Below, one piece after another: positions 13,031 through 48,253 of a stretch of DNA of 64,000 bases. Position 1 is the first letter of the stretch. Each line of letters starts with the position of its first letter. The DNA lies in assembly GCA_026004655.1 (NCBI GenBank), contig BPJO01000003.1:122254-186253 (forward strand), read 5' to 3'. The position numbers and the translations under genes are program-made. This DNA comes from Phycisphaerae bacterium. Its GTDB lineage: Bacteria; Planctomycetota; Phycisphaerae; Tepidisphaerales; Tepidisphaeraceae. The notes under the pieces are model-generated. The model did not search any database, was not told the DNA's origin, and saw only the letters and a list, made by a program, of their open reading frames with translations.

Positions 13031-13116
13031 AACTTTTACGCCCAATCGGACTGCTCTTTTGGGAGCCCCGGAGAAGATTAATCCGTACCGGTTTGAAAAC
13101 CGGAGGAGGCGCTATC

Positions 13117-14550: not shown

Positions 14551-14553
14551 TCT

Positions 14554-15393: not shown

Positions 15394-16391
15394 TGAGTGC
15401 ACCTGCGCCTTCGATGTTCAGTCCCCAAGCGAGTGAAATGGCCAAATCACTGGGTTTGAAACCAGGAAAAGCCAATCTTGAACAATTCGCCGACACCTTG
15501 ACTCTTCTTGCCCGGAAAGACCGTCGTATTTTGGCGGTGACCAGCGACTCGCGGGGCAGCGGCAAGCTCGGACCTTACGGACAGGAGCTACCCGATCAGA
15601 TCGTCGAGGTGGGCATTGCTGAGCAAAACCTTGTCGGTGTGGCAGCCGGTCTGGCATCGTGCGGGAAAAAAGTCTTTGCGGTGTCGCCAGCCTGCTTTTT
15701 GGCAACCCGGGCACTGGAACAGATCAAAAACGACGTCTGCTACTCGGACATGCCTGTAGCCTTGATCGGAATCAGCGCGGGGGTGAGCTATGGTGCACTG
15801 GGAACGACGCACCATTCCCTCCACGATTTTGCCGCTCTTCGTGCGATCAATAACCTGTCTATCCTTGCTCCCGGAGATAATGCCGAATCCCGACTGGCCA
15901 TCGAATATGCCGCCCGGTCTGAGCATCCGGTATATGTCCGTTTCGGAAAAGCCCCGTTGTATGACCTTCCTGCGTCTGAATCTCTTCAAGTGGGTCAGGC
16001 CAGGGTTTTACGAAACGGATCGGATCTGGCTTTTATCGCTACCGGGGAAACGGTCATTCATGCTCTTTTGGCCGCGGAGCACCTTGCCGTGTTTCATCAG
16101 ATTCAGACCCGTGTAATCAGTCTACATACCCTTCGGCCGCTGGATAGCGAATCGATTCTACAGGCTGCCCGACAGTGCAGGGCCGTTATCACTGTCGAAG
16201 AACACATGGTTCATGGAGGATTGGGAGAAGCCGTTGCAGGGCTTGTGTTGCAAAGCGGACTTAAACCCCGATTCCGAATCGTTGGCATCCCTGACGAGTA
16301 TACGGTTACCGGTGCGCAGGCGGATATTTTCCGGCATTACGGGATCAGCATGGAAGGTTTGTCACAAACCGCCCGTCAACTGCTCGCCTGA
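15393..16391 (+). CDS. Transketolase, C-terminal (pyrimidine-binding) subunit
   Basis: 332 aa. Motifs: VEVGIAEQNLVGVAAGLA, GTTHHSLHDFAALRAINNL and TVEEHMVHGGLG. Confidence 0.85.
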   Translation: MSAPAPSMFSPQASEMAKSLGLKPGKANLEQFADTLTLLARKDRRILAVTSDSRGSGKLGPYGQELPDQIVEVGIAEQNLVGVAAGLASCGKKVFAVSPACFLATRALEQIKNDVCYSDMPVALIGISAGVSYGALGTTHHSLHDFAALRAINNLSILAPGDNAESRLAIEYAARSEHPVYVRFGKAPLYDLPASESLQVGQARVLRNGSDLAFIATGETVIHALLAAEHLAVFHQIQTRVISLHTLRPLDSESILQAARQCRAVITVEEHMVHGGLGEAVAGLVLQSGLKPRFRIVGIPDEYTVTGAQADIFRHYGISMEGLSQTARQLLA

Positions 16392-16399
16392 GGAGTGGC

Positions 16400-21800: not shown

Positions 21801-22677
21801 AAATCATACGTTGGAAATTGAGTTACTGGATCCGGGCGCGCGTGCTGCGTTGATGGTCGATTTCCTGGCCAAGAACGAACAAGGAGATTCATTAGCTATT
21901 ATCAGTGACGACCGTTGGGAGGTGTCACGGGACGCAGGGCCTTGGCAGAAGGTTTCGATTTTATCCAAACCTGAACCGGAAAATGCCGCATGGGGGTTGT
22001 ATCGTCGTCCCCATCCTTTGCCGGCTTCGAGCTGGATTGAAGGTCCACAATCCGGTGCGGTGTTGGATATTCGTTTATGCCCTATTCTGGAAAAACCGTG
22101 CCGGCAATGGCTCGAGTGGGTGATTCCTCCCGGCGCTGTTGCCATGCGTTTGCCTCTGGCTGAGTATCATTCGTTGTCTCTGTGGATCGATGGTTTGAAA
22201 CACGATATCAGGGACACCGAGCGGATTTCACTGCCCGGCGGGCCTTGTCGACGAGCGATCCTGTCGGTTGATTCTGCCGAGTGGGGAGGGGGCCTGCTGA
22301 AGGCACCCGTGACCTACCAATGGGCTGAAGACGGAGGACTGCTGTATACCGGATCCTGGTTAAAACAAGGATTGCGATCTTATTCCGGTGCGATCCGGAT
22401 GCATCAACATCTGCAATTAACAGGTAACGAATCGATTTTGGATCTTGGTCGTGTTCGAGGTACGGTCCAAGCCTTGGTCAACGGGAAATCCGCCGGGGTA
22501 CGCTTTATGTCACCTTACCGGTTCGATATTTCCGCAGTAGTGACAAAAGGCGACAATCACCTGGAGCTGGTGGTTACCAATACGCTGGTAAATCACTTGT
22601 CCACATGGAGTCCGTCTGGGTGGTGGTCGGCGGATCAACTGGAATGCGGCGTGTTCGGACCGGTCAGAATCGGCTAA
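18865..22677 (+). CDS. Large GH106-like glycoside hydrolase (alpha-L-rhamnosidase-type family), 1270 aa
   Basis: The N-terminus FVDPDPRFGPIPAWWWSGDKLSWDRMQWQMDQMFGMGIRNLVI matches GH106-type proteins as I recall them. So does the C-terminal galactose-binding-like end (GTVQALVNGKSAGVRFMSPYRFDIS...GDNHLELVVTNTLVNHL). Confidence 0.55.
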   Translation: MTATEFLSQFVDPDPRFGPIPAWWWSGDKLSWDRMQWQMDQMFGMGIRNLVIINLAPNGTLFASEPDDPPFLSELWWDYFRKTCDYAAQKGMKILFYDQIGFSGANFQADLIASNPQFSALQLKRLSVEGHGRLSLQCPGAGQPLAAYLVKDSSVQYVELEKDKSVVVHTDVHAKLSLVYTVRQGFDLFSVPACQALLDTVHRQFEKRLPDHIGKTIIGSFQDELPELPTWGVDFAESFKQTYGYDLPSVIHRLFEPGDDQSRLTRIHYHSHRAQRAERSFFKPFYEWHESHGMACGFDQQSPAREARVLGCTQKYADYMRVHQWYGMPGCDLHGNGKLHSSIAHLHRRKRVWLEGFHSTGWGGTIADTFDWLLPYLRSGSNLYNPHAIYYSTRKGWWEWAPPSTCWRQPYAMHYKPFAEMIARLCKLLTQGVHQATAGVLFPTTTVQSALGPWEGFDEAKQTDQVLHETIGSMRWHQEKIGPLDEIGIDYHLLNDQAIASATLTGDRLDVAGTLLQVIILPKVTAIDARAADKLIGFARQGGKIISINSARALTTQGQWIEWSDIGTVIQHADQLKDLLQSIDRPFRAPVQVMHRKISEDLDLLFVPAITGMATVVKWPGWFEKMEHTTIVSDRYAKELLLQLPEPCRVFRFDPTDGSIRSLSVNNTQFTIDFEGCPFAVLVVERQSSSQTDVRIQPKPHRNLPNEWQVFYHPTLPQEFVDTHDPLRPELCWPHTTEFSWEMTPEDRSAGLRKPEAVLSGFGGRAWKKSDKTDREPVIYSPEFGIAQDRLHIHTLGPKGHVPEEFIDLGKISPDDPVTVHVAMEIEKPQKAILMVGSSARKHARLNGKEVGSCIDRYQWVTDPLSLESGRNELQLTLAVAKEQNVRLWWCWVDPQRVTECVRPERIWLDATPVFGTKILYRRVFDCATTLTDGQVKVSVAALAKVWLDGKLIGQQGGCDPYRPMMRGNVYKLPELSPGNHTLEIELLDPGARAALMVDFLAKNEQGDSLAIISDDRWEVSRDAGPWQKVSILSKPEPENAAWGLYRRPHPLPASSWIEGPQSGAVLDIRLCPILEKPCRQWLEWVIPPGAVAMRLPLAEYHSLSLWIDGLKHDIRDTERISLPGGPCRRAILSVDSAEWGGGLLKAPVTYQWAEDGGLLYTGSWLKQGLRSYSGAIRMHQHLQLTGNESILDLGRVRGTVQALVNGKSAGVRFMSPYRFDISAVVTKGDNHLELVVTNTLVNHLSTWSPSGWWSADQLECGVFGPVRIG

Positions 22678-23765
22678 GAATTCATTAAAAATTCCAAACC
22701 GTGTTCTGCTAAGATTGATCGGACAGTAACGGGTTTGCGGGTTTGCAGGCTGACTTCCATGGCTCGCATCACAGCAACAGTCCCGATGCCCTCAGCAATG
22801 TCCGGTTTTGGAGTTTTTCCTTCCGCCAGACATTTGGCAAAGTGTTCGATGTAATTCTGATATTCCCCGGCATGGTGGGATTTTCCCCCGAACCGAAAAT
22901 AATAACCGGCTAAGTGGTTGAAGTTGTATTGGACCATTCCCTCGCCGGTGAAATGAGTGCTGTACCTTAAGTCAGAATAATCCGCTTGGCTCGTGCCTTT
23001 GAGACCGCGGAGAATACAGCTCATGCTGCTATCACGGTCACTATTCCCATAGGGTCCTGAATAATGACCGCTGATACGGGCGATTTTGCCGCTGTCGGTG
23101 GTCAGTACAAAATGCATGGCATCGGGATCTGTCAACCCAAGCGACCGTCCGTTTTCGGTCAGAGTCCCGTAACCCATCACTTCGGCAATATCGGGCAAAT
23201 ACCATCGGACAAGATCGACCGGATGAGAAAGTCCTCCGTAAAGCCATTTCAATCCCCCGTTCCGAGCCCAGTCGCGCTTCATAAACCAACGATTATCGGC
23301 GTTGTAATAGGCTTCGACAGAATAGAGTTCCCCATGCCTTCCGGATTCATAATCGGCACGCTGACGGATCATCGGTTCAAAAAAACGGGTAGACTGACCG
23401 ACGTATACATATTTCCCCGACTTCTGGCCGATGTCCAGGAGGTCCTTCGCCGAATCCAGTCGATCTATGAGGGGTTTGGTGCAAATGACGTGTTTTCCTG
23501 CTTCCAGGCATTGCCTGATATGAGAAGCGTGCAACGGATCGGGGGTATAAATTCCGATCACATCGATCGTCCGGTCATTTAAAAGATCATCGAATCGGGT
23601 GGTGTAATGAGGGAAATTGAACTCGGCTGTACGTTGTTTGCACAGGTCTTCATTTATATCACAGATTCGGACAAGCTCCCACCATTCAGATTCGAGCGCT
23701 GCTGAGATGATCGAACGACCTTCACCGAGTCCTAAGACACCAAGTTTAAGTTTTTTCTGCGACAT
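22674..23765 (-). CDS. Gfo/Idh/MocA-family NAD(P)-dependent oxidoreductase
   Basis: 363 aa. The Rossmann N-terminus LKLGVLGLGEGRS and the motif HVICTKPL are present. Its stop overlaps the convergent GH106-like stop by 4 nt. Confidence 0.8.
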   Translation of the reverse strand: MSQKKLKLGVLGLGEGRSIISAALESEWWELVRICDINEDLCKQRTAEFNFPHYTTRFDDLLNDRTIDVIGIYTPDPLHASHIRQCLEAGKHVICTKPLIDRLDSAKDLLDIGQKSGKYVYVGQSTRFFEPMIRQRADYESGRHGELYSVEAYYNADNRWFMKRDWARNGGLKWLYGGLSHPVDLVRWYLPDIAEVMGYGTLTENGRSLGLTDPDAMHFVLTTDSGKIARISGHYSGPYGNSDRDSSMSCILRGLKGTSQADYSDLRYSTHFTGEGMVQYNFNHLAGYYFRFGGKSHHAGEYQNYIEHFAKCLAEGKTPKPDIAEGIGTVAVMRAMEVSLQTRKPVTVRSILAEHGLEFLMNS

Positions 23766-23791
23766 AAGTTTCTATTGACTATTTTTGATCT

Positions 23792-25975
23792 TTAGCGGTT
23801 ATTGCTGTTTACTTCCGAATGATCCTGATGAGGAGTGATCGAACCGTTTTCAACGATCCAGTTCAAATAATGTTCGAGATTGGTGTATCCGTCTTCACGA
23901 TACTCGGCCTGGTCTGCGGGGTTGTTCGGATCCGTTCCGAGTCGTTGTTCGAACCAATCGGGGATTCCGTCCATGTCCAGATCGGACGGGGCAGGACCGT
24001 TTTTTAGTTCGGGCCAACCACCGACGTCTTTTTGCGAGTCAATGATTCCGGGAGTATTTCCACGGCTTCCACTGAAGGTATGCGTTCGATGGGTGACGTC
24101 ATGAATGGCACGGAGGTCGACGGCATCGTGATGGGGAATATTCGCACCCACATCCGACAAAACGGTTTCCAAAAGCCGTTCGGTCGGGGTTGTTGTGACA
24201 TAAGAAGGAAACAGCTCGACCGCAGATCGTAATTTCTCTTGGGTGCCCGGAGGGACTTTAGAGAAATTGATCGCACCGCTGGTCCAATTATCGGGAAGGT
24301 ACTCTTGTCTGCCTTCCATAGCGTTGCCTTCGATGTAATAGAGCTGGGGATCATTCGGCCAGAAGTTTTCGGGCATCATGATGTGAAAGACACGGGTTGC
24401 CGGACCGGGAATGTAAAGATTATTGACGAAATTCATTCGTTTGACACCACCGTCGGTCGTTCGGTGCTGCCAGTTGTAAATGACGTTGTTTCGGATATCC
24501 AGTGAGCCGGCGATTTTACCGGCCCGATCCAAACCTCCTGCCAACGACCAGTTGCGTCCGGCACAATGAGTAACCAGATTATGATGAAAGCTACCGATTT
24601 CACCGGAAATGCTTCCGGCGAAGCTATGCCCCTTGCCCTGTGCGTATTTGGCATGACCGGCGATATTCAATGCTTCGGTCACGATGGATTTCTGAAAGGT
24701 GATATTGGCAGCTCCACGAGAGCTGACGGCTTCGTCGATACTCCAGCTGACCGAGCAATGATCTATGATGCTATGATCCGTGCTGGCAAACCCCGTTCCG
24801 TCCATGGTCTGTCCGGATTCATCTCCCACACGGATGCGCATGTACCGAATGATGGAATCATGTGTGCCGTAATTTCCGAAAGTGTATCCTCGGACTGCAA
24901 TCCCGTCGCCGGGGGCTGTTTGACCTGCGATGGTGATATAGGGGTTTCGGATAACCAGCTTGCTTTTGAGCTTAATGGTTCCTCCGACACGAAAGACCAC
25001 CGTGCGTGGGCCTTCGGCTTCGACAGCCTCACGCAGCGTACCGGGTCCGGAATCTTCCAAGCTCGTCACGTTATATACTTTCCCACCCCGTCCACCGATG
25101 GCGAAGCGTCCATACCCTTCAGCCCCGGGAAAGGCGAGTCTTCGGATGCGAAAACGCCACAAATCTCCGGGAACGACGGTTCCGTCACTTCTGAGAGTAT
25201 CGACTCGCCAGTAATACGCCGGAATCGCAACTGATAATCCGCTGGTCTGATACTTCGGCTCGGAAGTCTCAGCCACTTGTTTCAGTTGATCAGGGTCTGT
25301 TCCGAGGTAAACACGATACGAAGAACCGCTTTGCGAAGGAGCTTGCCAACTCAACAGCGGATTCTCTGGAGCGTGTTCGTCCCGGTCGTGAGGAAATGGA
25401 CGAGTGGCTTTCTGCGAGGGGTCTGAAACATCCAGTTCTAAACCGTTGAGGATGACCTGTCCGGATTCGGATACGAGTCGAATAGTGACATCTTGACCTT
25501 GTTCGGCCTGGAATGTGACGTAACCCGTAGCTGCATCGAACTGGTCAGAAACACGGATTGTCGGAGTCACAACCGTATGTGACGATTGTACCTGGATATG
25601 AATGGGGGTCGGGCTGATCTTGTCATCGGTCAGATTGTGATAGGTCACCAGGGAATGTCGGCCCGGCGGCAAACCCCGGAGGATGATTTGAATGCCAGGT
25701 GCCATGACTCCGTCACTCGTAACCGTTGCACGCGTATCGTAGCCAGCTTTCCACATCACGGTCGTGAGCGTTCCCTGAGTTGCCCGCAGAGTCAGGCGGA
25801 CCGAATCCACGTCCCGATCTACTTCGGTGACCGAATCCGGAACCCTCCAATTGGTCCAGCCCGTGGACAACTGGTCTTTTCGGTCATTGTCGGCATTGAG
25901 ATCGATCCGAAATGCCCAGACCGGAACGGTCGTCAATAAAACGATGAGCAACGGTTGAATCCAACGATTCTTCAT
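23792..25975 (-). CDS. Secreted pectate lyase (PL1-like) with N-terminal beta-sandwich/FN3-like modules and a C-terminal TSP3-like Asp-rich tail
   Basis: Track ORF 23792..26053, trimmed to ATG 25975 (MKNRWIQPLLIVLLTTVPVWAF signal peptide). The PL1-type core reads FPGAEGYGRFAIGGRGGKVYNVTSLEDSGPGTLREAVE...ITIAGQTAPGDGI. The tail reads DLDMDGIPDWFEQRLGTDPNNPAD. Confidence 0.75.
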   Translation of the reverse strand: MKNRWIQPLLIVLLTTVPVWAFRIDLNADNDRKDQLSTGWTNWRVPDSVTEVDRDVDSVRLTLRATQGTLTTVMWKAGYDTRATVTSDGVMAPGIQIILRGLPPGRHSLVTYHNLTDDKISPTPIHIQVQSSHTVVTPTIRVSDQFDAATGYVTFQAEQGQDVTIRLVSESGQVILNGLELDVSDPSQKATRPFPHDRDEHAPENPLLSWQAPSQSGSSYRVYLGTDPDQLKQVAETSEPKYQTSGLSVAIPAYYWRVDTLRSDGTVVPGDLWRFRIRRLAFPGAEGYGRFAIGGRGGKVYNVTSLEDSGPGTLREAVEAEGPRTVVFRVGGTIKLKSKLVIRNPYITIAGQTAPGDGIAVRGYTFGNYGTHDSIIRYMRIRVGDESGQTMDGTGFASTDHSIIDHCSVSWSIDEAVSSRGAANITFQKSIVTEALNIAGHAKYAQGKGHSFAGSISGEIGSFHHNLVTHCAGRNWSLAGGLDRAGKIAGSLDIRNNVIYNWQHRTTDGGVKRMNFVNNLYIPGPATRVFHIMMPENFWPNDPQLYYIEGNAMEGRQEYLPDNWTSGAINFSKVPPGTQEKLRSAVELFPSYVTTTPTERLLETVLSDVGANIPHHDAVDLRAIHDVTHRTHTFSGSRGNTPGIIDSQKDVGGWPELKNGPAPSDLDMDGIPDWFEQRLGTDPNNPADQAEYREDGYTNLEHYLNWIVENGSITPHQDHSEVNSNNR

Positions 25976-26049
25976 CCTCACACATCTCCTGCCGAAAAAG
26001 TAGGTTTCAGAATATCCGTGACGGGTGGTGGAAAGATTGCGTGATCGCG

Positions 26050-26724
26050 TCAACTTATTACACGATCGCGCAATATCTGAACGATTCTCTGTACCGCCAG
26101 TCTGGGGCTGGACAAAACAGGAATGTCCATCTGCCCGTTTGGTAGGGCGTCGATAGCCCGGGCCATCGATGCTTGAGCAAGAAGAACGACATCCACTTTT
26201 TCGGCCAATTGTCGTACAGCGTTGGCGACGAGTTGATCGTGTTTTTGGGTGTCCCCGTTCATGACCGCCGAAAAGGCACCCTCGATCACATTTGCAAAAA
26301 TTTGAACCTGTCTGGACTGTTGAACGGATTTTTGCTGAACGAGAGATCGCGTCGGGTCAAGGGTCGAAGGGAGTGTTGCGACGATCCCGATGCGTGTACC
26401 GATTGCAACTGCCTGGTCGACCATGGCTTCGTCAGCACGAAGAACCGTTGCGGGAACCAATACCCGGGATGCTTCTACGGCAGGACCCATCGACGAACAC
26501 GTGACCAGGATGACGCCGGCCCCGGCATCCGAAGCTGACAACACATGACCGCAAAGCCTTCGAGCCGTCCCAGGGGGACAGGTCCCGTGTTCGATAATAT
26601 CGCACAGGAGACTTTCATCCACCATGTTGAAAACCCTTGCCAAGGAACCGATTTGTTCATCGATCAGGGGTTTAAATACTGGAATCATGGAGGGGGATGT
26701 ATGAATCAATGCAACAACACTCAT
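26050..26724 (-). CDS. Asp/Glu/hydantoin-racemase-fold protein (single conserved Cys)
   Basis: 224 aa. The first active-site-like motif VILVTCSSMG places Cys at residue 76. The second motif position reads LLAQASMA, with Ser rather than Cys. A 4-nt start/stop overlap links it to the upstream kinase gene. Confidence 0.65.
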   Translation of the reverse strand: MSVVALIHTSPSMIPVFKPLIDEQIGSLARVFNMVDESLLCDIIEHGTCPPGTARRLCGHVLSASDAGAGVILVTCSSMGPAVEASRVLVPATVLRADEAMVDQAVAIGTRIGIVATLPSTLDPTRSLVQQKSVQQSRQVQIFANVIEGAFSAVMNGDTQKHDQLVANAVRQLAEKVDVVLLAQASMARAIDALPNGQMDIPVLSSPRLAVQRIVQILRDRVIS

Positions 26725-27944
26725 GATCTGGTTTCTCCTTGGAATGCACGGATAAAAAAATCCTTGGAACCGACTTGTCCACCTTTAAAGACCAGTTCCA
26801 AGCCGTCGGCGGGAGAGCCAGGGGCAGATGCCATGACAACCGGTGCACCGCGGACCAAAGGCGCGACCATCCTCAGAGAAGCAATTCTCAGATGGCGAGC
26901 AATCGCTCCGGACGTATCACCCCCAGCTATAACCAAACGGGAAATTTTCACATTCTCCAGAACCCGCAAGGCTGATTCTGCCATCAACCGACTGACTTCT
27001 CGTGCGTCGGTCCGATTTACAGAAGGGTTTGTATGAAGTACAACGTCCTGCCCACATCTTAAGAGATGGATTACGTCTTCGTGTGCCCGCTCGGTCAGAA
27101 CAACTTCCTTAAACCCACTCTGCAGGGCGAAACATGTTTGCCCGATCGAAACCGGAGAACAACTTCCACACATAACCAACCGGGGACCGATAGAAGGCTT
27201 GTAGGACAACGGTTTTGCAGAAAACGACCATCGAGTAAGCAAGGATGACTCCACTCCGGACGAACCTACGATGAATCGAGCTTCCTTCGGACGATCCAGA
27301 ATCAGACCCATAGCATGAAGGTCCTGATGAGTTAGAGTATCAAACAACGCAATATGTCCGGGAGAAATTGCTGGAGGCGAAAACAAAAAACGTACGTCGA
27401 TCAGCTCGATCGGACGACGCGTCTGCTTTGCTAAATGCTTCACCAAGTCGGCTTCGGTCATGGGGGTGATAGGATGTTGACTGACCGATGGATGACGGTC
27501 CAACCGATAAACCGACCCGTCGGAACCATATCGTGCAAACAGATTCCCAAAAACGCAGTATCGACCCAGCGACGGGGCGCCGGGCATGACCGGAATGTAG
27601 CGAGGTTTTAGTTGATCAAATGCAACATCAATGGCGCGTCCGATCGAACCGATATCCGGAGAAGAGTCAAAAGTGCTGCAAACCTTGTAATGAATCAGCC
27701 GAACAGGTAGCGCAGCTACCCGTGGTAGCAGATCTTTCAGAACATGCTCGATCTGATCGGCCGACTCGGATCGCAAATCCGTTGCAATACCAAACGCATC
27801 AAGACCCGCAATGTCTTGAACCGACGGAACATAAGTGAACAGAGATGTCCGAAGCCCTCCCAAGGTCAGCAGTTCAAGCGCATCGGTACTGCCTGTAAAA
27901 TCATCTCCGATGAAACAAAGCCATGAAGTGGGGGACATGCTCAA
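26721..27944 (-). CDS. Four-carbon acid-sugar kinase family protein (DUF1537)
   Basis: 407 aa. The N-terminus CFIGDDFTGSTDALELL and the C-terminal nucleotide-binding half (LVIAGGDTSGAI) are typical of DUF1537 kinases. It has 4-nt overlaps with both neighbours. Confidence 0.75.
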   Translation of the reverse strand: MSMSPTSWLCFIGDDFTGSTDALELLTLGGLRTSLFTYVPSVQDIAGLDAFGIATDLRSESADQIEHVLKDLLPRVAALPVRLIHYKVCSTFDSSPDIGSIGRAIDVAFDQLKPRYIPVMPGAPSLGRYCVFGNLFARYGSDGSVYRLDRHPSVSQHPITPMTEADLVKHLAKQTRRPIELIDVRFLFSPPAISPGHIALFDTLTHQDLHAMGLILDRPKEARFIVGSSGVESSLLTRWSFSAKPLSYKPSIGPRLVMCGSCSPVSIGQTCFALQSGFKEVVLTERAHEDVIHLLRCGQDVVLHTNPSVNRTDAREVSRLMAESALRVLENVKISRLVIAGGDTSGAIARHLRIASLRMVAPLVRGAPVVMASAPGSPADGLELVFKGGQVGSKDFFIRAFQGETRS

Positions 27945-29200
27945 TCCGACTTTTTGAACTTTTGCATGCTTTGACGCAATTCCGGATGAGTTTTGGCGTA
28001 CTCATCCAAGGATATTCCTGCAACAGCGGCTTCCCAGGCCTGTCGCAGAGCAGCGACCCCCGCAGCATGTCCGGACGGATGAGCGGCAATCCCCCCACCG
28101 GCCAAATATAACAGATCGGTTGTGGCAACTCTGCGATAGGTTTCAGGGGCTTGCAAACCCGTTTGCCCGCTGGAAATGACCGGGCAAATAGATTTCTGTT
28201 CTCCGAGTTTTTTTCGACAGGCTTTGATTGACGCTACCACCGAATCGTCCGGTTCCCAAAACTTGTTGGCAATCCCGTTCACATGGATCTGGTCCACCCC
28301 TGCCAAACGCCAGAGTTTCTGATAGGCGGCAAAATCTATCCCTAAAAGTGGATGGCGATTGAGCATACCCCATCCGTTGCGGTGACCATGGATGGCCAAC
28401 TCCCCACGGTCGCAGATATGTTTTACCGCTGACATCCCGACGGTGTTCAGGCTGATCATGGCACAGGTCCCCTCGAGTTCAACGATCCGGTCATAGTGAC
28501 GTTTCATCGCGTCCAGCTCGTCGCTGATGTTGCAAGCGTACATGACCTTTTTCCCGGTTTTTTGGGCATGATCATTGATGACGCGCATGACAGCCTCCAG
28601 ACGACGATCGAAAGGGGAATGAGGGCTGTTGGCTTGGAGTTCATCATCTTTGATGAAATCGATGTCTGCTTCGACGAGTTGTTTGACGACGCTGGCCGTT
28701 TGTTCGGGGGACAAACCAACACTGGGTTTGATGATGGTTCCGATGATCGGGCGGGAGGAACCGACACCGGTCAGAAGTCGCGTTCCTTCCACGCCGAATG
28801 CCGGTCCACGAAAATGACGCACGAAACCAGCCGGGGGGGTGAAATCCATCAGCTTCAGACCTGAAAACTGTGCCAGTTCGTAAAGATTACCCTGTAGCGT
28901 ACTGATTAGAACGGGCAGATTTGTCCCAAAATTATGGACCGGCCAGGAAATGGTGATCCGTCCGCGAGTGTAATGGGCAGGACGAACGGGACTCCGTGAA
29001 CCGGGTAGGGATGGTTCGGAGACCGTTTCAAGCTCTTCGACGGATTCTACCCTCGCAGCATAGGCGGCTTTGAGTTCTTCTGTTTCGCCAGGAACTGCGA
29101 CAAAAGTCCCCGAAGACTGCTCGCCAGCCAATATTTCTGCTGCGTCACTCAAAGAAAGCGGTGTCTCAACATAATAGGTGGCAGTTAGACGTTCCGACAC
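27941..29200 (-). CDS. RuBisCO-like protein (RLP, form IV RuBisCO large-subunit family)
   Basis: 419 aa. Motifs: IIKPSVGLSPEQ, DIDFIKDDELQ (equivalent to the carbamylated-Lys KDDE motif), HGHRNGWG and GGGIAAHP. The protein is too short and too divergent for a bona fide form I-III enzyme, and no small-subunit or CBB genes are nearby. Confidence 0.8.
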   Translation of the reverse strand: MSERLTATYYVETPLSLSDAAEILAGEQSSGTFVAVPGETEELKAAYAARVESVEELETVSEPSLPGSRSPVRPAHYTRGRITISWPVHNFGTNLPVLISTLQGNLYELAQFSGLKLMDFTPPAGFVRHFRGPAFGVEGTRLLTGVGSSRPIIGTIIKPSVGLSPEQTASVVKQLVEADIDFIKDDELQANSPHSPFDRRLEAVMRVINDHAQKTGKKVMYACNISDELDAMKRHYDRIVELEGTCAMISLNTVGMSAVKHICDRGELAIHGHRNGWGMLNRHPLLGIDFAAYQKLWRLAGVDQIHVNGIANKFWEPDDSVVASIKACRKKLGEQKSICPVISSGQTGLQAPETYRRVATTDLLYLAGGGIAAHPSGHAAGVAALRQAWEAAVAGISLDEYAKTHPELRQSMQKFKKSD

Positions 29201-29365: not shown

Positions 29366-31543
29366 ATGACGGAACGCTTGGACAGTTATAACGTCACATG
29401 GACTTCACCCAGTCAGGATGTCAGCGGATCAATGCCACTGGGCAATGGTGATCTGGCAGCCAATGTTTGGGTCGAACCGTCCGGAGACCTATTACTTCTA
29501 CTGGCAAAGTCCGATGCTTGGGACGAAAACAGTTCCTTGCTGAAGTTAGGCCGCGTGAGACTCAAACTGGATCCGATTCCTGACCTCAGCGAAGGTCGGT
29601 TCGAACAAACGCTCAGACTCGAGCAAAGCGATATCCTCATCCGAATCGACTCGATCTGCCTGAAAATCTGGGTTGAGGCACAAACTCCCGTCTTGTGGAT
29701 CGAGATCGATTCGTCCACACCGGTAACTTGCCGGGCAACATTGGAAACTTGGCGAAATCAGCCGCGTACCGTAAAGACACAGACGGGCGATCTGTTCAAG
29801 AATCTGACAGGCCCTGATCCATATCCCACAATCGTTCACCCGGATCAGTTTCTGGAAGATCCGGATTGCATCATTTGTTGTCATCACAACGGCACGGATG
29901 AGCCTGATCCGTACGTTGTCAACATGCGACTTCAGGGCCTCGGTTCGCTGATTTCGTCTTTACCTCACCCGTTGAAGGCAAGAACATTCGGAACATGTAT
30001 CACGGGAGAAGGGTTCTCCAAAACGGGTCAAGACACCCTGATTTCCAGAACACGAACCCGGCACCAGCTTCGGATCCTGGGTTTAACCCAACACCCCTCA
30101 ACGGTGGATCAATGGCGTACTTCCATTAAAGATCTGACCCGCAGACACGCGACTCCGGACCGAAAATCTCATGAACAATGGTGGAAATATTTCTGGGAAA
30201 AGAGTCATATTTTCATTTCTTCTCCGAGTAAAATTCCCCGTTTTTCCGAACCCCCTCAGGTCGTCACGCGGGCCTATCTTCTGCACCGATGGATGACCGC
30301 TTGCTGTGGGCGTGGCAAACAGCCGATCAAATTTAATGGTGGATTATTTTCTTATGGAACGGCAGAAGATCCCGATTTTCGAAGATGGGGGGGGCCCGGT
30401 TTCTGGTTTCAAAACCAACGTCTGATTTACTGGCCGATGCTGGCCAACGGGGATTTCGACCTGTTTGAACCCTTCGTTCGGATGTATCGTGACCAGCTCG
30501 ACTTACAAAAATACCGAACCGAGCAATTTTATCACCACTCCGGCGCCCATTACCCCGAAACGGTCACTTTCTGGGGCTCCGAAATCAGTGCCCACTATGG
30601 TTGGACACCGTTTGAACAACGTTCGTCTCCCGAAGCGGAGTCCAAATATGTTCGTTATCATTTCAACAGCGGGATCGAATTGTGTCTGATGATCAGTTGT
30701 TGGTACGAGATGACCGAAAATGCTTCGATCCTTCATGAATATCTGATTCCGATCGCACGCGAAGTAATTGAGTTTTACATTCAACATTATCCGAAAGATT
30801 CGACCGGAAAAATCAGGATCGAGCCTTCTCAAGCTCTGGAATCCTGGCAAAATGTGACCAACCCTTTGCCGGATATCGCAGGACTGCGTTATTTGTTGCC
30901 CCGGTTGATAAAACTTCCTGAGATTGAACCTGCCCTCAAAACCCGTTGTTCGGGGCTTTTGGAATCCCTTCCTTCTTTACCGTTCCGAGAAGAACTGGGA
31001 ATCCGCGTCCTTGCACCGGGTGAACAGTACTCCGAACTGAAGAATACCGAAAACCCGGAACTATACTCGATTTTTCCTTATCGGTTGCACGGGGTAGGCA
31101 AACCCGATCTCGAACTGGCCCGTCAAACGTTCGTAGCCCGTCGAAATGTCAATCACACGTGTTGGCATCAGGACGATATTCATGCCGCCTATTTGGGGCT
31201 GACCTACACCGCCAAAGCCCATGTCGTTCGTAGAGCCTCCTCAGATTGCCATAGTGACAGCCGATTCCCGGTATTTTGGAATGCTTTTAACGACTGGATC
31301 CCGGATATGGACCACGGCGGGGTACTGCAACTAGCGATCCAAGCCATGCTGATGCAATGTGAGGAGGATCAGATCCTGCTTTTCCCTGCCTGGCCTACCG
31401 AATGGGATGTGGACTTTAAACTCTATGCTCCCCGGAATACGACCGTCTCAGCCAAGCTTCAGGGAGGGAAAATCGTCTCATTGAAAATCTTGCCCGAATC
31501 CCGAATCAAGGATGTTGTCTGCATGCTCAGACTTCCGGAATAA
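29366..31543 (+). CDS. GH95-like / DUF5703-type glycoside hydrolase
   Basis: 725 aa. The N-terminus YNVTWTSPSQDVSGSMPLGNGDLAANVWVEPSGDLLLLLAKSDAWDE resembles the GH95/DUF5703 N-domain signature (MPLGNG). The C-terminal part is (alpha/alpha)6-like. Confidence 0.55.
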   Translation: MTERLDSYNVTWTSPSQDVSGSMPLGNGDLAANVWVEPSGDLLLLLAKSDAWDENSSLLKLGRVRLKLDPIPDLSEGRFEQTLRLEQSDILIRIDSICLKIWVEAQTPVLWIEIDSSTPVTCRATLETWRNQPRTVKTQTGDLFKNLTGPDPYPTIVHPDQFLEDPDCIICCHHNGTDEPDPYVVNMRLQGLGSLISSLPHPLKARTFGTCITGEGFSKTGQDTLISRTRTRHQLRILGLTQHPSTVDQWRTSIKDLTRRHATPDRKSHEQWWKYFWEKSHIFISSPSKIPRFSEPPQVVTRAYLLHRWMTACCGRGKQPIKFNGGLFSYGTAEDPDFRRWGGPGFWFQNQRLIYWPMLANGDFDLFEPFVRMYRDQLDLQKYRTEQFYHHSGAHYPETVTFWGSEISAHYGWTPFEQRSSPEAESKYVRYHFNSGIELCLMISCWYEMTENASILHEYLIPIAREVIEFYIQHYPKDSTGKIRIEPSQALESWQNVTNPLPDIAGLRYLLPRLIKLPEIEPALKTRCSGLLESLPSLPFREELGIRVLAPGEQYSELKNTENPELYSIFPYRLHGVGKPDLELARQTFVARRNVNHTCWHQDDIHAAYLGLTYTAKAHVVRRASSDCHSDSRFPVFWNAFNDWIPDMDHGGVLQLAIQAMLMQCEEDQILLFPAWPTEWDVDFKLYAPRNTTVSAKLQGGKIVSLKILPESRIKDVVCMLRLPE

Positions 31544-31559: not shown

Positions 31560-33056
31560 ATGAACACCATGACATTACAGATTCATCCACTTGACAATGT
31601 GGTAGTGGCCCTGCGTCCGCTTCGAGCGGGAGAAACGGTGGGGCAAATCGTCCTGAAGAATGATATCCCCCTTGGACACAAGATCGCTTCACGAGACATC
31701 AAGATGGGAGAACCGGTGATCAAATATGGTTATCCCATCGGGATCGCTGCTGTTAACATTCGACAGGGCGAACACGTCGACGAGAAAAACATCAAAAGTA
31801 CGCTGCGTGGCAAGCTTGAATCGGCCACTTTCAACCCGCAGGTCAAATCTCAGGCTTGCATGCAGCTTCGTCAATTCGAGTATGACGGATACGTCAGACC
31901 TAACGGACAGGTCGGATCCCGAAACGAAATCTGGATCATTAACACTGTCGGATGCGTCAATCATGCGTCCACTCGTATTGCCGAGACGGCTGCCAAGGCG
32001 CTTGTAGGAAAAGGGATTGACGGTGTGCACGCCTTCCCGCACCCGTACGGGTGTTCTCAGCTAGGGGATGACCTGAACTATACACAAAAGGTCCTAGCGG
32101 GTCTGGTCAATCATCCGAATGCCGGAGGCGTTTTGATCCTCGGACTGGGATGTGAAAACAATCAGATGAAACTATTCCTGGAGCAGCTGGGACCGCAGAA
32201 CAGGGATCGGGTTCGTTATTTCAATGCCCAGGAGGTGAGTGACGAAATCGAATCCGGTTTGGATGCTGTGCAGGCTTTAGCCGAGTATGCTCAACAGTTC
32301 AAGCGGCAGAGGGTTGACGCCAGACATCTGATCCCCGCGATGAAGTGTGGAGGAAGCGACGGATTAAGCGGTATTACGGCCAATCCGTTGGTCGGACGAG
32401 TTGCCGATCGATTTACCGCGGGGGGGGCTACTGTTCTGTTGAGTGAAGTGCCCGAAATGTTCGGCGCCGAACAGGTGTTGTTGGACCGCGCTTGCAACCG
32501 CGAAGTGTTCGAAGACACCATCCGATTGGTCAACGATTTTCGAAGTTATTTCGAACGATACAACCAACCCATCGACGAGAACCCCTCTCCGGGCAATAAA
32601 GCCGGAGGAATATCCACCCTGGCCGAGAAATCGTTGGGTTGTGTTCAGAAAGGAGGGGATGCGCCGGTGAAACAGGTTCTGGGTTATGGACAGCCTGCCC
32701 GAGCAGGACTCGGGGGATTGGCGTTGGTCAACGCGCCGGGAAATGACGGGGTATCCTGCACCGCCATGACGGTTGCCGGGGCCCACGTCATCCTGTTTAC
32801 GACCGGACGAGGCACCCCCATGGGATTTCCCGTTCCCACACTCAAAATCTCCACCAATACCGATTTGGCAACCCGAAAACCTCAATGGATCGACTTTGAT
32901 GCAGGTCGACTCATCAGCGAAGGTATTTCTGCAGAGGAATTGGCAGACCAGCTCACCCAACTTGTCCTGGATGTAGCGTCGGGGCGCAAACAGACCCGAA
33001 ACGAACAGCACGGTTACCGAGAAATCGCCATCTGGAAAGACGGTGTCACTGTATAA
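31560..33056 (+). CDS. uxaA: Altronate dehydratase (UxaA family hydro-lyase)
   Basis: 498 aa with an N-terminal SAF domain (IHPLDNVVVAL...GHKIA). The core carries GYVRPNGQVGSRNEIWIINTVGCVN, KCGGSDGLSGITANP and VILFTTGRGTP. Confidence 0.8.
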   Translation: MNTMTLQIHPLDNVVVALRPLRAGETVGQIVLKNDIPLGHKIASRDIKMGEPVIKYGYPIGIAAVNIRQGEHVDEKNIKSTLRGKLESATFNPQVKSQACMQLRQFEYDGYVRPNGQVGSRNEIWIINTVGCVNHASTRIAETAAKALVGKGIDGVHAFPHPYGCSQLGDDLNYTQKVLAGLVNHPNAGGVLILGLGCENNQMKLFLEQLGPQNRDRVRYFNAQEVSDEIESGLDAVQALAEYAQQFKRQRVDARHLIPAMKCGGSDGLSGITANPLVGRVADRFTAGGATVLLSEVPEMFGAEQVLLDRACNREVFEDTIRLVNDFRSYFERYNQPIDENPSPGNKAGGISTLAEKSLGCVQKGGDAPVKQVLGYGQPARAGLGGLALVNAPGNDGVSCTAMTVAGAHVILFTTGRGTPMGFPVPTLKISTNTDLATRKPQWIDFDAGRLISEGISAEELADQLTQLVLDVASGRKQTRNEQHGYREIAIWKDGVTV

Positions 33057-33077: not shown

Positions 33078-34511
33078 ATGAAAAATCTACCCCGACTGAA
33101 CCGGTCATTGTTACTTTCCAATGCCTTTCCACAAGACTTGTCTTTACCTTCTTACGATGTGGGCCAGTTGCCCATAAAGGTGCTGCAGATCGGCGAAGGG
33201 GTTTTCTTGCGTGCTTTTGTTGATCCGATCCTGCACGAACTTAATCAATCCGCTGGATTCAACGGTGGAGTGGTCGTAGCCCAGCCTCGAACCGGAGGAC
33301 ATGCCCGAAAGTTGAACGAACAGGACGGACTCTACACCGTAATTTTGCGAGGCAATTTGCGTGGCAACCTCGTTCACAAACGACAAATCATCGGATGTAT
33401 CCAAGAAGGGCTTGATCCGTATTCCCAGTATGATCGGTGGTGCCAGCTCGCTCGGGAAAGACATCTTAGGTTTGTCTTCTCGAATACGACCGAAGCCGGA
33501 ATCGCATTGAATCCTCAAGACCAGGCCGACGCACGACCGACGGTCTCATTCCCCGGAAAGATCGCGCAGTTTTTGAAAATGCGTTTCGAATATTTCCAAG
33601 GTGATCCTTCGACTGGTCTTATCTTCATTCCTTGTGAATTGATTGAAGACAACGGAGCGACCCTTCGGTCATTGATCCTTCAGGCGGCCGGGCAATGGAA
33701 CTATGAACCTGAATGCGTCCGTTGGATCGAACAAAATTGCCTTTTTGTGAACACGTTGGTCGATCGAATCGTCACCGGTCATCCCGGCCCTGAGGCTGAG
33801 TCCATCGAGCAATCTCTGGGATATCACGATACTCATTTAAACACCGCTGAACCGTACATGGCGTGGGTCCTCGAAGCACCTGCAAGAGTTCGGGACGAAA
33901 TTCCCCTTCATTCTGTCGCTGACAACGTCATCTGGACCGATCACGTCAAACCCTATCGGGAACGCAAAGTCCGACTCTTGAATGGTGCTCATACGATGAT
34001 GACACCGGTTTCCCTGCTTCTGGGTATTCAGACCGTCCGACAAGCCATTGAAGAACCGTTGATTCGTCGATTTGTCCGAAAGGGACTCTTTGAAGAGATT
34101 ATTCCCACTATCCCCCAGCCAAAAAACGAATTGGAACAATTCGCCAACGACGTGATCGAGCGATTTTCTAATCCGTTTATCGCTCATCAGCTCAAGAGCA
34201 TTGCTTTAAACAGCGTGTCGAAGTTCAAAGCACGCCTTTTGCCCGTTTTGATCAATTTCATCGTCGAGAAAGGACATGCTCCGGACTGCATCAGCCTTGC
34301 AGCTGCGTCTTTAATCGAGTTGTATCGCACCGTGGAAGATGTTTCAGACGATCCTTCCGCCATTGAAGCAGCCCGTACCGGTGATTTACTGGCTCAGCAG
34401 TGGCCCGTGCCAGAATCCGTTCGTTCGATCATTGGCCATTCGATTCGAACATGGCTTGAAATGATCGATGAACACGGAATTGAACAGGCCGTCCGTCAGG
34501 CAAGCTCGTAG
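33078..34511 (+). CDS. uxaB: Tagaturonate reductase (altronate oxidoreductase), mannitol dehydrogenase family
   Basis: 477 aa. It aligns by eye with E. coli UxaB as I remember it: IGEGVFLRAFVD, FVFSNTTEAGI, IPCELIEDNG, TLVDRIVTG, LGYHD...TAEPY, VKPYRERKVRLLNGAHT, EEIIP and NPFIAHQLKSIALNSVSKF. Confidence 0.8.
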   Translation: MKNLPRLNRSLLLSNAFPQDLSLPSYDVGQLPIKVLQIGEGVFLRAFVDPILHELNQSAGFNGGVVVAQPRTGGHARKLNEQDGLYTVILRGNLRGNLVHKRQIIGCIQEGLDPYSQYDRWCQLARERHLRFVFSNTTEAGIALNPQDQADARPTVSFPGKIAQFLKMRFEYFQGDPSTGLIFIPCELIEDNGATLRSLILQAAGQWNYEPECVRWIEQNCLFVNTLVDRIVTGHPGPEAESIEQSLGYHDTHLNTAEPYMAWVLEAPARVRDEIPLHSVADNVIWTDHVKPYRERKVRLLNGAHTMMTPVSLLLGIQTVRQAIEEPLIRRFVRKGLFEEIIPTIPQPKNELEQFANDVIERFSNPFIAHQLKSIALNSVSKFKARLLPVLINFIVEKGHAPDCISLAAASLIELYRTVEDVSDDPSAIEAARTGDLLAQQWPVPESVRSIIGHSIRTWLEMIDEHGIEQAVRQASS

Positions 34512-48127: not shown

Positions 48128-48210
48128 AAACAGAAATACTTACGATGCAAGAGGTGTTTTAGCGTCACCACCGGCATTTCAATAAACCGATTCAGTTCAG
48201 ATACAGATAA

Positions 48211-48239: not shown

Positions 48240-48253
48240 ATGATAATCACACC

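Follow-up and report, generated by a model that had tools for sequence, protein, structure and literature searches.

A conserved gene trio for a RuBisCO-like protein, a DUF1537 kinase and a racemase-fold protein in a Phycisphaerae rhamnogalacturonan-II locus: a possible module for L-aceric acid catabolism

The systems closest to the gene cassette analysed here are the D-apionate pathway enzymes OiaK and OiaC/OiaX, said to have been described by Carter et al. in Nat Chem Biol in 2018, and a 3-oxo-tetronate route for four-carbon acid sugars (OtnK/OtnC), reportedly from Zhang et al. in PNAS in 2016. The OtnK/OtnC route resembles our proposal in that a 3-oxo acid is the substrate of a DUF1537 kinase and a beta-keto acid phosphate is then decarboxylated, but there a member of the class II aldolase family carries out the decarboxylation, where our cassette has a RuBisCO-like protein (RLP), and the enzymes upstream, dehydrogenases and an isomerase, come from other families. 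In the apionate system (activities summarised in PMC6302742; reference models NCBIfam NF042436 and NF042437), the DUF1537 kinase adjoins a form IV RLP, as in our cassette. A third point of comparison is the rhamnogalacturonan-II (RG-II) polysaccharide utilisation locus (PUL) of Bacteroides thetaiotaomicron with the GH127 enzyme BT1003, the GH140 enzyme BT1012, the GH138 enzyme BT0997 and the PL1 enzyme BT1023 (Ndeh et al., 2017, as summarised in PMC13501991), of which BT1003 is an aceric acid hydrolase (PMC13501991, PMC10850190). Reviews present this PUL as a depolymerisation system, and a cytoplasmic module of RLP, kinase and racemase-fold protein is absent from those descriptions.

The window, that is the whole stretch of 64,000 nucleotides analysed here (contig BPJO01000003.1 of a Phycisphaerae bacterium), is by its gene content an RG-II utilisation locus, so that the pectin-type locus of an earlier note on this DNA is borne out. 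It carries a glycosidase set homologous to that of B. thetaiotaomicron, which argues for the same polysaccharide target. On the minus strand lie a BT1003-type GH127 aceric acid hydrolase (1..1711), cut by the window edge, which matches NF049879 (AcerHdlse) with 778.8 bits and covers 570 of its roughly 657 positions, a GH138-type alpha-galacturonidase (6245..8842; NF049878, 996 bits) and a GH140 apiosidase-like protein (8829..10406; Pfam Apiosidase, DUF5060, DUF5605). The plus strand encodes a fucose-isomerase-family isomerase (12976..14550), a split transketolase (14554..15393 and 15393..16391) and an FGGY/GlpK-like kinase (16400..17872), all assigned with Pfam and NCBIfam. This block (12976-17872) matches the apulose route for apiose reported by Carter et al. 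2018, and we regard it as a candidate for a separate apiose (apulose-4-phosphate transketolase) route. Its genes recur near the trio described below in 5-11 loci. Also on the plus strand, and divergent from the cassette, are genes for a DUF5703 protein (29366..31543; Pfam; PDB 9HMB and 9HYQ, "DUF5703 domain-containing protein"), whose orthologues occur near the trio in 18 loci, and, again by Pfam and NCBIfam, for a UxaA-like member of the altronate/galactarate-dehydratase family (31560..33056) and the tagaturonate reductase UxaB (33078..34511), the latter two belonging to galacturonate catabolism.

The cassette itself consists of five minus-strand genes, whose coordinates and families agree with the earlier note: a form IV RLP (27941..29200; 419 aa, GTG start; Pfam), a kinase of the DUF1537 (four-carbon acid sugar kinase) family (26721..27944; Pfam SBD_N and NBD_C), an Asp/Glu/hydantoin-racemase-fold protein (26050..26724; PF01177), a secreted PL1-type pectate lyase with an N-terminal extension (23792..26053; PelZ model, PDB 9BUJ) and a Gfo/Idh/MocA NAD(P) oxidoreductase (22674..23765; Pfam). 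The chain of 4-nt overlaps described earlier for the first three genes, hereafter the trio, holds between kinase and racemase-fold gene, where a true ATGA overlap is preceded by AAGGAG; between RLP and kinase it holds only if a TTG start is used, and an alternative ATG start of the kinase at 27938 lies 2 nt past the RLP stop codon. The ORF-called 4-nt overlap between racemase-fold and PL1 genes rests on a mechanical TTG start and is probably an ORF-calling artefact. The likely true PL1 start is the better ATG at 25975, which has an upstream Shine-Dalgarno sequence (GGAG), opens a signal peptide (MKNRWIQPLLIVLLTTVPVWA) and puts about 72 nt between the two genes. A gap of 26 nt separates PL1 from the Gfo/Idh/MocA gene. 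Since no terminator-like sites were found on the minus strand between 22300 and 29500, co-transcription of the five genes is plausible; within the RG-II locus, the trio has the same orientation as the PL1 and Gfo/Idh/MocA genes and is probably co-transcribed with them.

Comparison across 59 adequately flanked loci from Bacteroidota, Verrucomicrobiota and Planctomycetota revealed the order RLP, kinase, racemase-fold gene on the same strand in 49 of them, in all three phyla. This arrangement is far beyond chance, and the earlier proviso that the trio might not be conserved in other genomes thus fails. The kinase directly follows the RLP on the same strand wherever both were called (68/68 loci), and the racemase-fold gene is found in 52/59. 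In 48 of the 59 loci the trio is accompanied by an SBF organic-anion symporter that is most similar to PanS, a transporter of pantoate/ketopantoate (209 bits). Such a symporter suits the uptake of a branched hydroxy acid and not of a neutral sugar such as apiose. No SBF gene is present in the window; PL1 is a locus-specific insertion at the place where most genomes have this transporter. The PL1 protein has no Pfam match, but matches the PelZ model (115.7 bits) and, over residues 265-676, the "Pectate lyase" of PDB 9BUJ (E 1.2e-47), and homologues accompany the trio in only 2 further loci. The Gfo/Idh/MocA protein, only weakly similar to IolG, levoglucosan-DH and DgpA, is a recurring accessory partner: in 13/83 loci an orthologue with 53-72% identity is found no further than 10 kb from the trio, in Phycisphaerales L079 directly after the racemase-fold gene, and a second Gfo family is found near the trio in 15 loci.

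L-Aceric acid (AceA; 3-C-carboxy-5-deoxy-L-xylose) is a branched acidic sugar of RG-II side chain B, and GH127 aceric acid hydrolase is the commonest glycosidase neighbour of the trio. Of the 59 loci, 35 have it no more than 10 kb away and 24 have none in that range. It immediately precedes the trio on the same strand in 27 loci, and a further 11 carry it at a distance of up to 6.5 kb. All but one of 40 trio-linked GH127 proteins hit NCBI's equivalog model for aceric acid hydrolase with E<=1e-250, and the representative reaches 1158.9 bits (cutoff 950). GH140-, GH143- and GH138-like genes are found in only 4 loci each. In the window, the GH127 gene is 26 kb away from the trio, and its product clusters with the GH127 proteins whose genes immediately precede the RLP gene in other genomes. 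From this genomic association and from chemical analogy with the apionate enzymes, the best explanation, to which we give about an even chance, is that the trio forms a self-contained L-aceric acid catabolic module.

The earlier family assignments of RLP and kinase are right, and their best curated matches are indeed OiaX (487.5 bits) and OiaK (293.9 bits), both well below the equivalog cutoff of 700 bits. The kinase (Pfam SBD_N 151 bits, NBD_C 76 bits) next matches 3-oxo-tetronate kinase (NF043035; 152.9 bits, cutoff 350) and D-threonate kinase (58.9 bits), also sub-cutoff; on these scores it fits the 3-oxo-acid kinases, OiaK and then OtnK, better than threonate kinase, and we propose that it is a 3-oxo-acid gamma-hydroxyl kinase. 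The RLP (Pfam RuBisCO_large, 233.8 bits, and RuBisCO_large_N) keeps the catalytic residues E60, T65, N123, K175, K201, D203, E204, H294, R295, H327, K334, S379 and GG403/404 together with S177 and W298, a set present in 79/79 members of the trio clade with the exception of W298 (78/79). It thus retains the full carboxylate-handling residue set of RuBisCO, including the carboxylate-binding E60, N123 and K334, and we propose that it acts as a decarboxylase, or as a transcarboxylase with cleavage, of a phosphorylated branched 3-oxo acid. Its closest solved structure (PDB 3NWR, "a rubisco-like protein"; 394 bits, full length), a structural-genomics entry without assigned function, has the same overall catalytic set, but carries N177/Y298 in place of S177/W298 and branches outside the trio clade. 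In a neighbour-joining tree this clade is monophyletic (93% bootstrap) with OiaX as its sister group. PGAP-annotated OiaX proteins, 46-49% identical to the RLP, fall into a clade of their own, and four of their catalytic residues are different (E60/N123/S177/H327 in the trio RLP, D60/G123/A177/Q327 in OiaX).

These relationships bear on the link to D-apionate and apiose drawn in the earlier note, by which the trio would serve a variant route from apiose through apionate to 3-oxo-isoapionate, with the Gfo/Idh/MocA protein as upstream oxidoreductase, the racemase-fold protein as an extra step, an OiaK-like kinase and an OiaC/OiaX-like RLP cleavage. The curated matches, the sister position of OiaX, the presence of apiose in RG-II, the GH140 gene of the window and the recurrent Gfo genes, one of them in the same putative operon, all speak for it. 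However, besides the low scores and the catalytic differences, the conversion of apionate to 3-oxo-isoapionate is an oxidation, and about 70% of the cassettes are without a nearby oxidoreductase; the conserved core of the trio loci includes no NAD-dependent oxidoisomerase, no apiose dehydrogenase and no lactonase, unlike the apionate system. Linkage to apiosidase-like genes is seen in 4 loci versus 35-41 for aceric acid hydrolase, apiose is neutral while the conserved transporter is an anion symporter, and the window has its own candidate apiose route. The racemase-fold gene, placed outside the published schemes already in the earlier note, never occurs in the OiaX-type clusters examined. The earlier note places a Gfo/Idh/MocA oxidoisomerase, ApnO, upstream in the apionate routes; in the OiaX/RLP-kinase clusters that we retrieved, the oxidoreductase that recurs next to the kinase belongs to the SDR family. 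The apionate system, moreover, is tied to apiose-binding ABC systems and found in rhizobia and other Proteobacteria, unlike the trio with its aceric acid hydrolase, its SBF symporter and its three phyla. We therefore consider a variant apionate route decidedly unlikely: the suspicion of a new RLP-dependent variant holds, but its substrate was probably misjudged, aceric acid being favoured.

For aceric acid, the following sequence of steps can be drawn up. GH127 aceric acid hydrolase, with the function known for BT1003, would free AceA, which would be imported by the SBF transporter in most lineages and by another transporter in this Phycisphaerae genome. The racemase-fold enzyme, with Cys76 as single base, may isomerise the aldose to the 2-ketose, predicted to be 2-(1-hydroxyethyl)-2,4-dihydroxy-3-oxobutanoate, the methyl homologue of 3-oxo-isoapionate. 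As AceA is without a primary hydroxyl before this step, an isomerase is logically required and an NAD enzyme is not needed. The DUF1537 kinase would then phosphorylate the new primary hydroxyl beside the ketone, as OiaK and OtnK do, and the RLP, with its intact carbamyl-Lys/Mg2+ site, would break the branched beta-keto acid phosphate. This could occur either by decarboxylation to 5-deoxypentulose-1-phosphate, giving DHAP and acetaldehyde through an aldolase encoded elsewhere, or by transcarboxylation and hydrolysis to 3-phosphoglycerate and lactate. The decarboxylase branch would need an aldolase, and none is conserved in the cassette. The scheme shares with the apionate system the predicted substrate class (2-substituted 2,4-dihydroxy-3-oxobutanoate), the predicted order of O4 phosphorylation and RLP cleavage or decarboxylation, and RG-II as the source polysaccharide.

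The isomerase role of the racemase-fold protein (PF01177, 66.2 bits; no match in the NCBIfam search) is a proposal reached by elimination, and aldose-ketose isomerisation is not known from the Asp/Glu-racemase superfamily. The protein has the fold of the PF01177 racemases (Asp/Glu/hydantoin/allantoin) and of arylmalonate decarboxylase and conserves the first catalytic Cys with its surrounding TCSS motif, which is invariant like the motifs HTS, DES and LAQASM. Aligned to allantoin racemase, C76 falls on Cys1, whereas Cys2 is replaced by the invariant Gln184, which makes a two-base racemase mechanism unlikely. Its AF2 model (pLDDT 94.1) retrieved racemases as top Foldseek matches (TM 0.68-0.79, only 12-19% identity) and also arylmalonate decarboxylase (TM 0.52), in which the other Cys is the one retained (G74/C188). 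In Bacteroidota and Verrucomicrobiota the racemase-fold gene is the neighbour of the transporter gene, and in Croceibacterium it overlaps with one for an MFS protein, as would fit a first intracellular step. Rhizobial homologues (41-43% identical, same motifs) lie beside FAD oxidoreductases and peptide-type ABC transporters without an RLP, so that the chemistry of the family is not specific to the proposed pathway.

Alternatively, aceric acid could be the substrate with the roles distributed otherwise: the racemase-fold protein might act after the RLP, for example as C3 epimerase of 5-deoxypentulose-1-phosphate for a fuculose- or rhamnulose-phosphate aldolase, or as an arylmalonate decarboxylase-like enzyme with the RLP as enolase/isomerase. 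The superfamily does contain this one-Cys decarboxylase, and RLPs are known as enolases and isomerases, MtnW-type models matching ours weakly. Yet the kinase needs the primary hydroxyl missing in aceric acid before isomerisation, a single-Cys site is a poor basis for two-base epimerisation, the RLP retains its carboxylate-binding residues, and arylmalonate decarboxylase is a far weaker match than the racemases. Such a division of labour appears very improbable to us.

RG-II loci hold many genes, so that the neighbourhood alone would also accommodate Dha (3-deoxy-D-lyxo-heptulosaric acid), Kdo or other RG-II acids. The trio might, for instance, handle a tetruronate from aldol cleavage of Dha, converted by the racemase-fold enzyme to a 3-oxo-tetronate, phosphorylated by the kinase and decarboxylated by the RLP to DHAP, or, with equal likelihood, some other, unrecognised acid sugar. 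In line with this, 3-oxo-tetronate kinase is the second-best curated match of the kinase, a Flectobacillus locus has a BT1020-like (Dha-hydrolase family) gene between the RLP and racemase-fold genes, and RLP/DUF1537 pairs occur in many unrelated contexts, which implies a wide substrate range of the enzyme pair. BT1020-like genes are, however, linked in only 4 loci, aceric acid hydrolase adjacency being about ten times more frequent, and the cassette conserves no Dha/Kdo-type aldolase, so that a different acid seems unlikely, though not far-fetched.

No report of an AceA catabolic pathway was found in the literature searched, and a 2026 RG-II preprint cites only the apiose enzymes as known rare-sugar catabolism. 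If the reading of the trio as an aceric acid module is true, the cassette would mark the breakdown pathway of this rare plant sugar.

The putative operon consists of five minus-strand ORFs, whose coordinates had been proposed exactly in an earlier note on this DNA and whose families could be confirmed with Pfam and NCBIfam or, for the pectate lyase, by its match to PDB 9BUJ and PelZ. They encode a RuBisCO large-subunit-family protein (RuBisCO-like protein, RLP; 29200-27941), a two-domain DUF1537 kinase (27944-26721), a PF01177 Asp/Glu/hydantoin-racemase-family protein (26724-26050), a 753-aa pectate lyase and a Gfo/Idh/MocA oxidoreductase (23765-22674). The chain of 4-nt overlaps suggested for the first three genes holds for the kinase/racemase junction, a true ATGA overlap, but the RLP and kinase genes are joined either by a 4-nt overlap (TTG start) or by a 2-nt gap (ATG start). 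The racemase-fold and pectate lyase genes only seem to overlap, most probably because the longest-ORF rule sets the start too early: 78 nt downstream lies an ATG that has a Shine-Dalgarno sequence as well as a classic signal peptide. A scan of the operon region revealed no terminator-like site interrupting the minus strand; apart from this absence the scan was uninformative, as promoter and terminator counts were lower than the shuffled expectation. The pectate lyase ORF matched the solved enzyme 9BUJ with an E-value of 1.2e-47 over residues 265-676 (the beta-helix region) and, weakly, Jun a 1, and contains no Pfam domain. Because it missed the PelZ equivalog (115.7 bits vs 840), its assignment to PL1 is at family level only.

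The RLP carries the RuBisCO_large (233.8 bits) and N-terminal (32.2 bits) Pfam domains and retains the carbamyl-Lys/metal ligands K201, D203 and E204 in a conserved KDDE motif, but departs from true RuBisCO in substrate-binding residues (K177 to Ser, H298 to Trp, W66 to Phe), as expected of an enzyme that does not fix CO2. Judged by its sequence, it is a form IV member of the RuBisCO large-subunit superfamily. No RuBisCO small-subunit or Calvin-cycle genes were found in the locus. A bona fide RuBisCO was rejected (form II and III models far below cutoff, K177 and H298 replaced), as was a methionine-salvage RLP (MtnW models at 124-167 bits vs cutoffs above 400, no Mtn genes in the context).

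The same earlier note had interpreted the RLP and kinase as a D-apionate-type module. This stands insofar as OiaX and OiaK are the closest curated families of the RLP and the kinase, respectively, but with 487.5 bits to the OiaX equivalog NF042437 and 293.9 bits to OiaK (NF042436) both fall short of cutoffs of 700. OiaC decarboxylates a branched beta-keto acid phosphate which OiaX transcarboxylates and hydrolyses, the decarboxylase being the Agrobacterium K84 enzyme and the transcarboxylase/hydrolase that of Xanthobacter (PMC6302742); the product name of NF042437 may have these roles swapped. PGAP-annotated OiaX proteins on rhizobial plasmids share 46-49% identity with the RLP of the window, and in their clusters a DUF1537 kinase is accompanied by ABC transporters, aldo/keto reductases and an SDR, with no racemase-fold gene and no glycosidases. 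An unannotated racemase gene was also sought in proteobacterial RLP-kinase clusters, and none was present.

Contrary to a placement with the apionate enzymes, RLPs encoded together with the kinase and the racemase-fold protein (the trio) formed a clade of their own (93% bootstrap) separate from the OiaX clade (100%), in a tree built by neighbour joining only, with few outgroups and without a verified OiaC sequence. When RuBisCO catalytic positions were mapped onto 79 RLPs of the trio clade, E60, T65, N123, K175, K201, D203 and E204 as well as H294, R295, H327, K334, S379 and GG403/404 were found to be kept in all 79, with S177 (79/79) and W298 (78/79) as replacements. The four annotated OiaX proteins differ in having D60, G123, A177 and Q327, where all 79 trio-clade proteins have E60, N123, S177 and H327. 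The trio signature is shared by two further RLPs with 52-56% identity, one from R. etli in a cluster with a kinase, an SDR and a permease (locus L084) and one from Croceibacterium with an adjoining GH127-like gene (L087). Pairs of RLP and DUF1537 genes (L084, L087 and the plasmid matches H18, H37, H38, H48 and H51) cover a far wider range than the two published apionate enzymes, and most are annotated only as "family protein". In rhizobia they stand beside SDR and KDG-permease genes, in Sphingomonadales beside a GH127-like gene, and on haloarchaeal megaplasmids they occur at 50-53% identity.

The kinase combines an N-terminal sugar-binding domain (PF07005, 151.3 bits) with a C-terminal nucleotide-binding domain (PF17042, 76.3 bits), both above cutoff, and has PDB relatives in 5DMH, 3DQQ and 1YZY. 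Its best stretch against the OiaK model covers profile positions 8-298 of 451, and OiaK ranks above 3-oxo-tetronate kinase and far above threonate kinase. A PdxA2-type threonate/erythronate route was rejected: D-threonate kinase scored lowest among the kinase matches (58.9 bits), and no PdxA family was seen among the annotated recurrent neighbour gene families.

The racemase-fold protein matched PF01177 with 66.2 bits (cutoff 31) and no other curated family. By sequence its closest solved relatives are allantoin/hydantoin racemases (E ~1e-4), and its AlphaFold (AF2) model (pLDDT 94.1), which has the two-domain alpha/beta fold of racemases, was aligned by Foldseek to Asp, Glu and hydantoin racemases with TM-scores of 0.68-0.79 at 12-19% identity. 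In the alignment to allantoin racemase, C76 falls on the first catalytic Cys, and Q184, within a LAQASM motif, takes the place of the second. This glutamine is invariant across sets of 44 and 67 homologues, so that the catalytic Cys pair is absent. A single predicted base fits a suprafacial proton shift, as in an isomerase, better than two-base racemisation. Rhizobial homologues with the same motifs (VTCSS...LAQASMA) occur with no RLP nearby (L091 8971-9654, on R. etli CFN42 p42f, and L092), which implies that the chemistry of the family is more general than the aceric acid pathway considered below. These homologues adjoin genes for FAD-binding oxidoreductases, a 2Fe-2S protein, an aldehyde dehydrogenase and a peptide/opine-type ABC transporter.

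The refuting point that the earlier note had named, a lack of trio conservation in other genomes, was decisively answered in favour of the trio. RLP relatives with 60-70% identity occur in Planctomycetota, Bacteroidota and Verrucomicrobiota, and contigs of Fontivita, Echinicola and Nibricoccus show the order RLP, kinase, racemase unchanged. When one genome per species was scanned, more than 517 RLP relatives (E<=1e-3) came up; the best 80 of these, 60-69% identical, were taken together with the three contigs just named (83 loci), and the ORFs next to them were grouped by unbiased clustering. The DUF1537 kinase was found in 73 of the 83 loci, always downstream of the RLP and on the same strand, the racemase-fold gene downstream of the kinase in 67, an SBF (PF01758) symporter directly after the racemase gene in 61, and a GH127 in 43, with a median position directly upstream of the RLP. 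Among the 59 loci with adequate flanks, kinase and racemase were each present in 52, the SBF in 50, the trio in 49, trio plus SBF in 48 and GH127 in 35. Further recurrent neighbours were enzymes for rhamnogalacturonan-II (RG-II), namely GH78, GH106, GH141, GH2, SASA esterase, GH88/105 and DUF5703, and two Gfo/Idh/MocA families recurred near the RLP in 13 and 15 loci. With high confidence, we see in the cassette an acid-sugar module that is conserved and linked to RG-II.

Some lineages show arrangements of their own. In about 12-15 Bacteroidota loci (clusters c8, c10 and c13; L002 2470-9682) a block upstream encodes a MaoC-like hydratase, an SBP_bac_1 protein, two family-III CoA-transferases, an Amidohydro_2 protein, a RhaT transporter and a second Gfo/Idh/MocA family; this block may stand for another, unassigned RG-II sugar pathway or for the downstream processing of the RLP product. 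Two loci (Flectobacillus L077 11345-13195, and L080) have a BT1020-like beta-propeller protein of the Dha-hydrolase family and a GH43 between RLP and racemase, and no DUF1537 kinase within 10 kb. An SBF gene was searched for within the 64-kb Phycisphaerae window and was absent; here the racemase gene is followed first by the PL1 lyase and then by the Gfo/Idh/MocA gene.

The identity of the GH127 neighbours points to a particular substrate. Of 40 GH127 proteins adjoining the trio, 39 matched the aceric acid hydrolase model NF049879 (cutoff 950) at E<=1e-250, with the full-length representative (L035) reaching 1158.9 bits and L003, just below the cutoff, 919.6; the copy of the window (1-1711), cut by the window edge, scored 778.8 bits over 570 of 657 positions. 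By these model scores the trio-adjoining GH127 would not be a generic beta-L-arabinofuranosidase. RG-II chain B carries the aceric acid linkage that BT1003, the founding member, cleaves (PMC13501991; PMC10850190); the structure of this chain and the ΔBT1003 phenotype have been reported (bioRxiv 10.64898/2026.03.13.711244). In 27 loci GH127 immediately precedes the RLP on the same strand, and in 11 more it lies within 6.5 kb. Genes of the GH140 apiosidase-like, BT1020-family Dha-hydrolase-like and GH138-like types show linkage in just 4 loci each. The conserved SBF is a Na+/organic-anion symporter closest to the pantoate/ketopantoate transporter PanS, and as such would suit a branched hydroxy acid, not neutral apiose. 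In Croceibacterium the racemase-fold gene overlaps an MFS transporter gene, with a GH140-like gene adjoining, which echoes the racemase-SBF pairing.

L-Aceric acid is 3-C-carboxy-5-deoxy-L-xylose. Its 1,2 aldose-ketose isomerisation would yield -OOC-C(OH)(CHOH-CH3)-C(=O)-CH2OH, which differs from 3-oxo-isoapionate in having CH(OH)CH3 instead of CH2OH. A primary hydroxyl would thereby be created gamma to the carboxylate and beside the ketone, as phosphorylated by OiaK/OtnK-type kinases, and phosphorylation there would give a branched beta-keto acid of the type on which OiaC/OiaX act. Whereas apionate needs an oxidation to reach this type of intermediate, aceric acid would need only an isomerase, and this would explain the presence of a cofactor-independent enzyme, not a dehydrogenase, in the conserved core. 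We consider aceric acid somewhat favoured as the substrate of the cassette, and put forward the specific three-step mechanism (isomerase, kinase, RLP), which is deduced by analogy, more tentatively. The role of the racemase-fold protein is the weakest link of the model, as the isomerase step was given to it by elimination.

Three other readings were weighed. That the cassette acts on apionate keeps some probability, given that the Oia enzymes are the nearest curated families and that an oxidoreductase is present in this particular operon. That oxidoreductase matched only generic Gfo/Idh/MocA models (IolG 95 bits, DgpA 70 bits), with DgpA-type glycoside 3-oxidoreductases as nearest solved relatives (about 70 bits), and its placement in related Phycisphaerales loci, directly after the racemase gene in L079 and after an inserted GH2 in L004, indicates a lineage-specific accessory. 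A Dha-derived tetruronate/3-oxo-tetronate route is chemically possible, with a weak hint from one Flectobacillus arrangement, and the roles of the racemase-fold protein and the RLP may be swapped. None of the three explains the tenfold neighbour preference for the aceric acid hydrolase.

Judged by gene content, the window as a whole is an RG-II utilisation locus. Besides the GH127 it encodes a GH138-type alpha-galacturonidase, a GH140 apiosidase-like protein, a GH2, a protein with a rhamnosidase-type jelly-roll domain and UxaA/UxaB for galacturonate catabolism. A tight plus-strand block (12976-17872) comprises a fucose-isomerase-family isomerase, a transketolase whose N and C halves are separate genes, and an FGGY (GlpK-like) kinase. 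The apulose-4-phosphate transketolase route for apiose reportedly has an isomerase/transketolase/kinase composition, which this block would match; if so, separate routes for two branched sugars of RG-II would lie in one locus. A DUF5703 protein (29366-31543, plus strand) is encoded divergently from the RLP, has orthologues within 10 kb of the trio in 18 loci (among them L021, L023 and L024) and may be an uncharacterised RG-II glycosidase; the solved structures 9HMB and 9HYQ carry only the name "DUF5703 domain-containing protein". Inside the RG-II locus, two very large, poorly annotated proteins (1690-4869, minus strand, and 18865-22677, plus strand), one of 1059 aa with DUF6298 and the other of 1270 aa with a C-terminal rhamnosidase-type jelly-roll as its sole domain, are candidate novel carbohydrate-active enzymes. 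Over the last 16 kb (48000-64000) the G+C content climbs to 0.55-0.61 from about 0.50-0.53, a rise that points to a border between the polysaccharide locus and a region of another composition.

No plant polysaccharide is regarded as more complex than RG-II, whose depolymerisation is well mapped. To our knowledge, aceric acid occurs in RG-II alone. In the literature searched, apiose was the only rare sugar of RG-II with a bacterial catabolic route, no RLP, DUF1537 kinase or catabolic pathway of any kind was linked with aceric acid, and nothing relevant joined RuBisCO-like proteins with rhamnogalacturonan or a DUF1537-type kinase with a racemase. A recent RG-II preprint (March 2026; bioRxiv 10.64898/2026.03.13.711244) likewise cites the apiose enzymes alone as known rare-sugar catabolism. 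We regard the cassette as an acid-sugar pathway of the RLP/DUF1537 kind in which the partner enzyme family and the transporter are new, and very probably the substrate as well. It is conceivable, if still rather uncertain, that it represents the first L-aceric acid pathway, with a new RLP substrate and a new reaction for an uncharacterised one-Cys branch within the Asp/Glu racemase superfamily, a cofactor-free aldose-ketose isomerisation on an acidic sugar. The new RLP substrate would be a six-carbon branched beta-keto acid phosphate mimicking the carboxylated intermediate of RuBisCO. The hypothesis is directly testable with the three soluble enzymes and aceric acid released from RG-II oligosaccharides by BT1003. 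If true, it would close one remaining gap in the flow of pectin carbon through the Bacteroidota, Verrucomicrobiota and Planctomycetota of soil, freshwater and gut, and would assign functions to the orphan one-Cys racemase-fold family and to a large, highly conserved RLP clade, with a relative (E<=1e-3) in more than 500 species-level genomes. RuBisCO-like reactions on branched 3-oxo acids would then number three, with a bearing on the evolution of RuBisCO chemistry.
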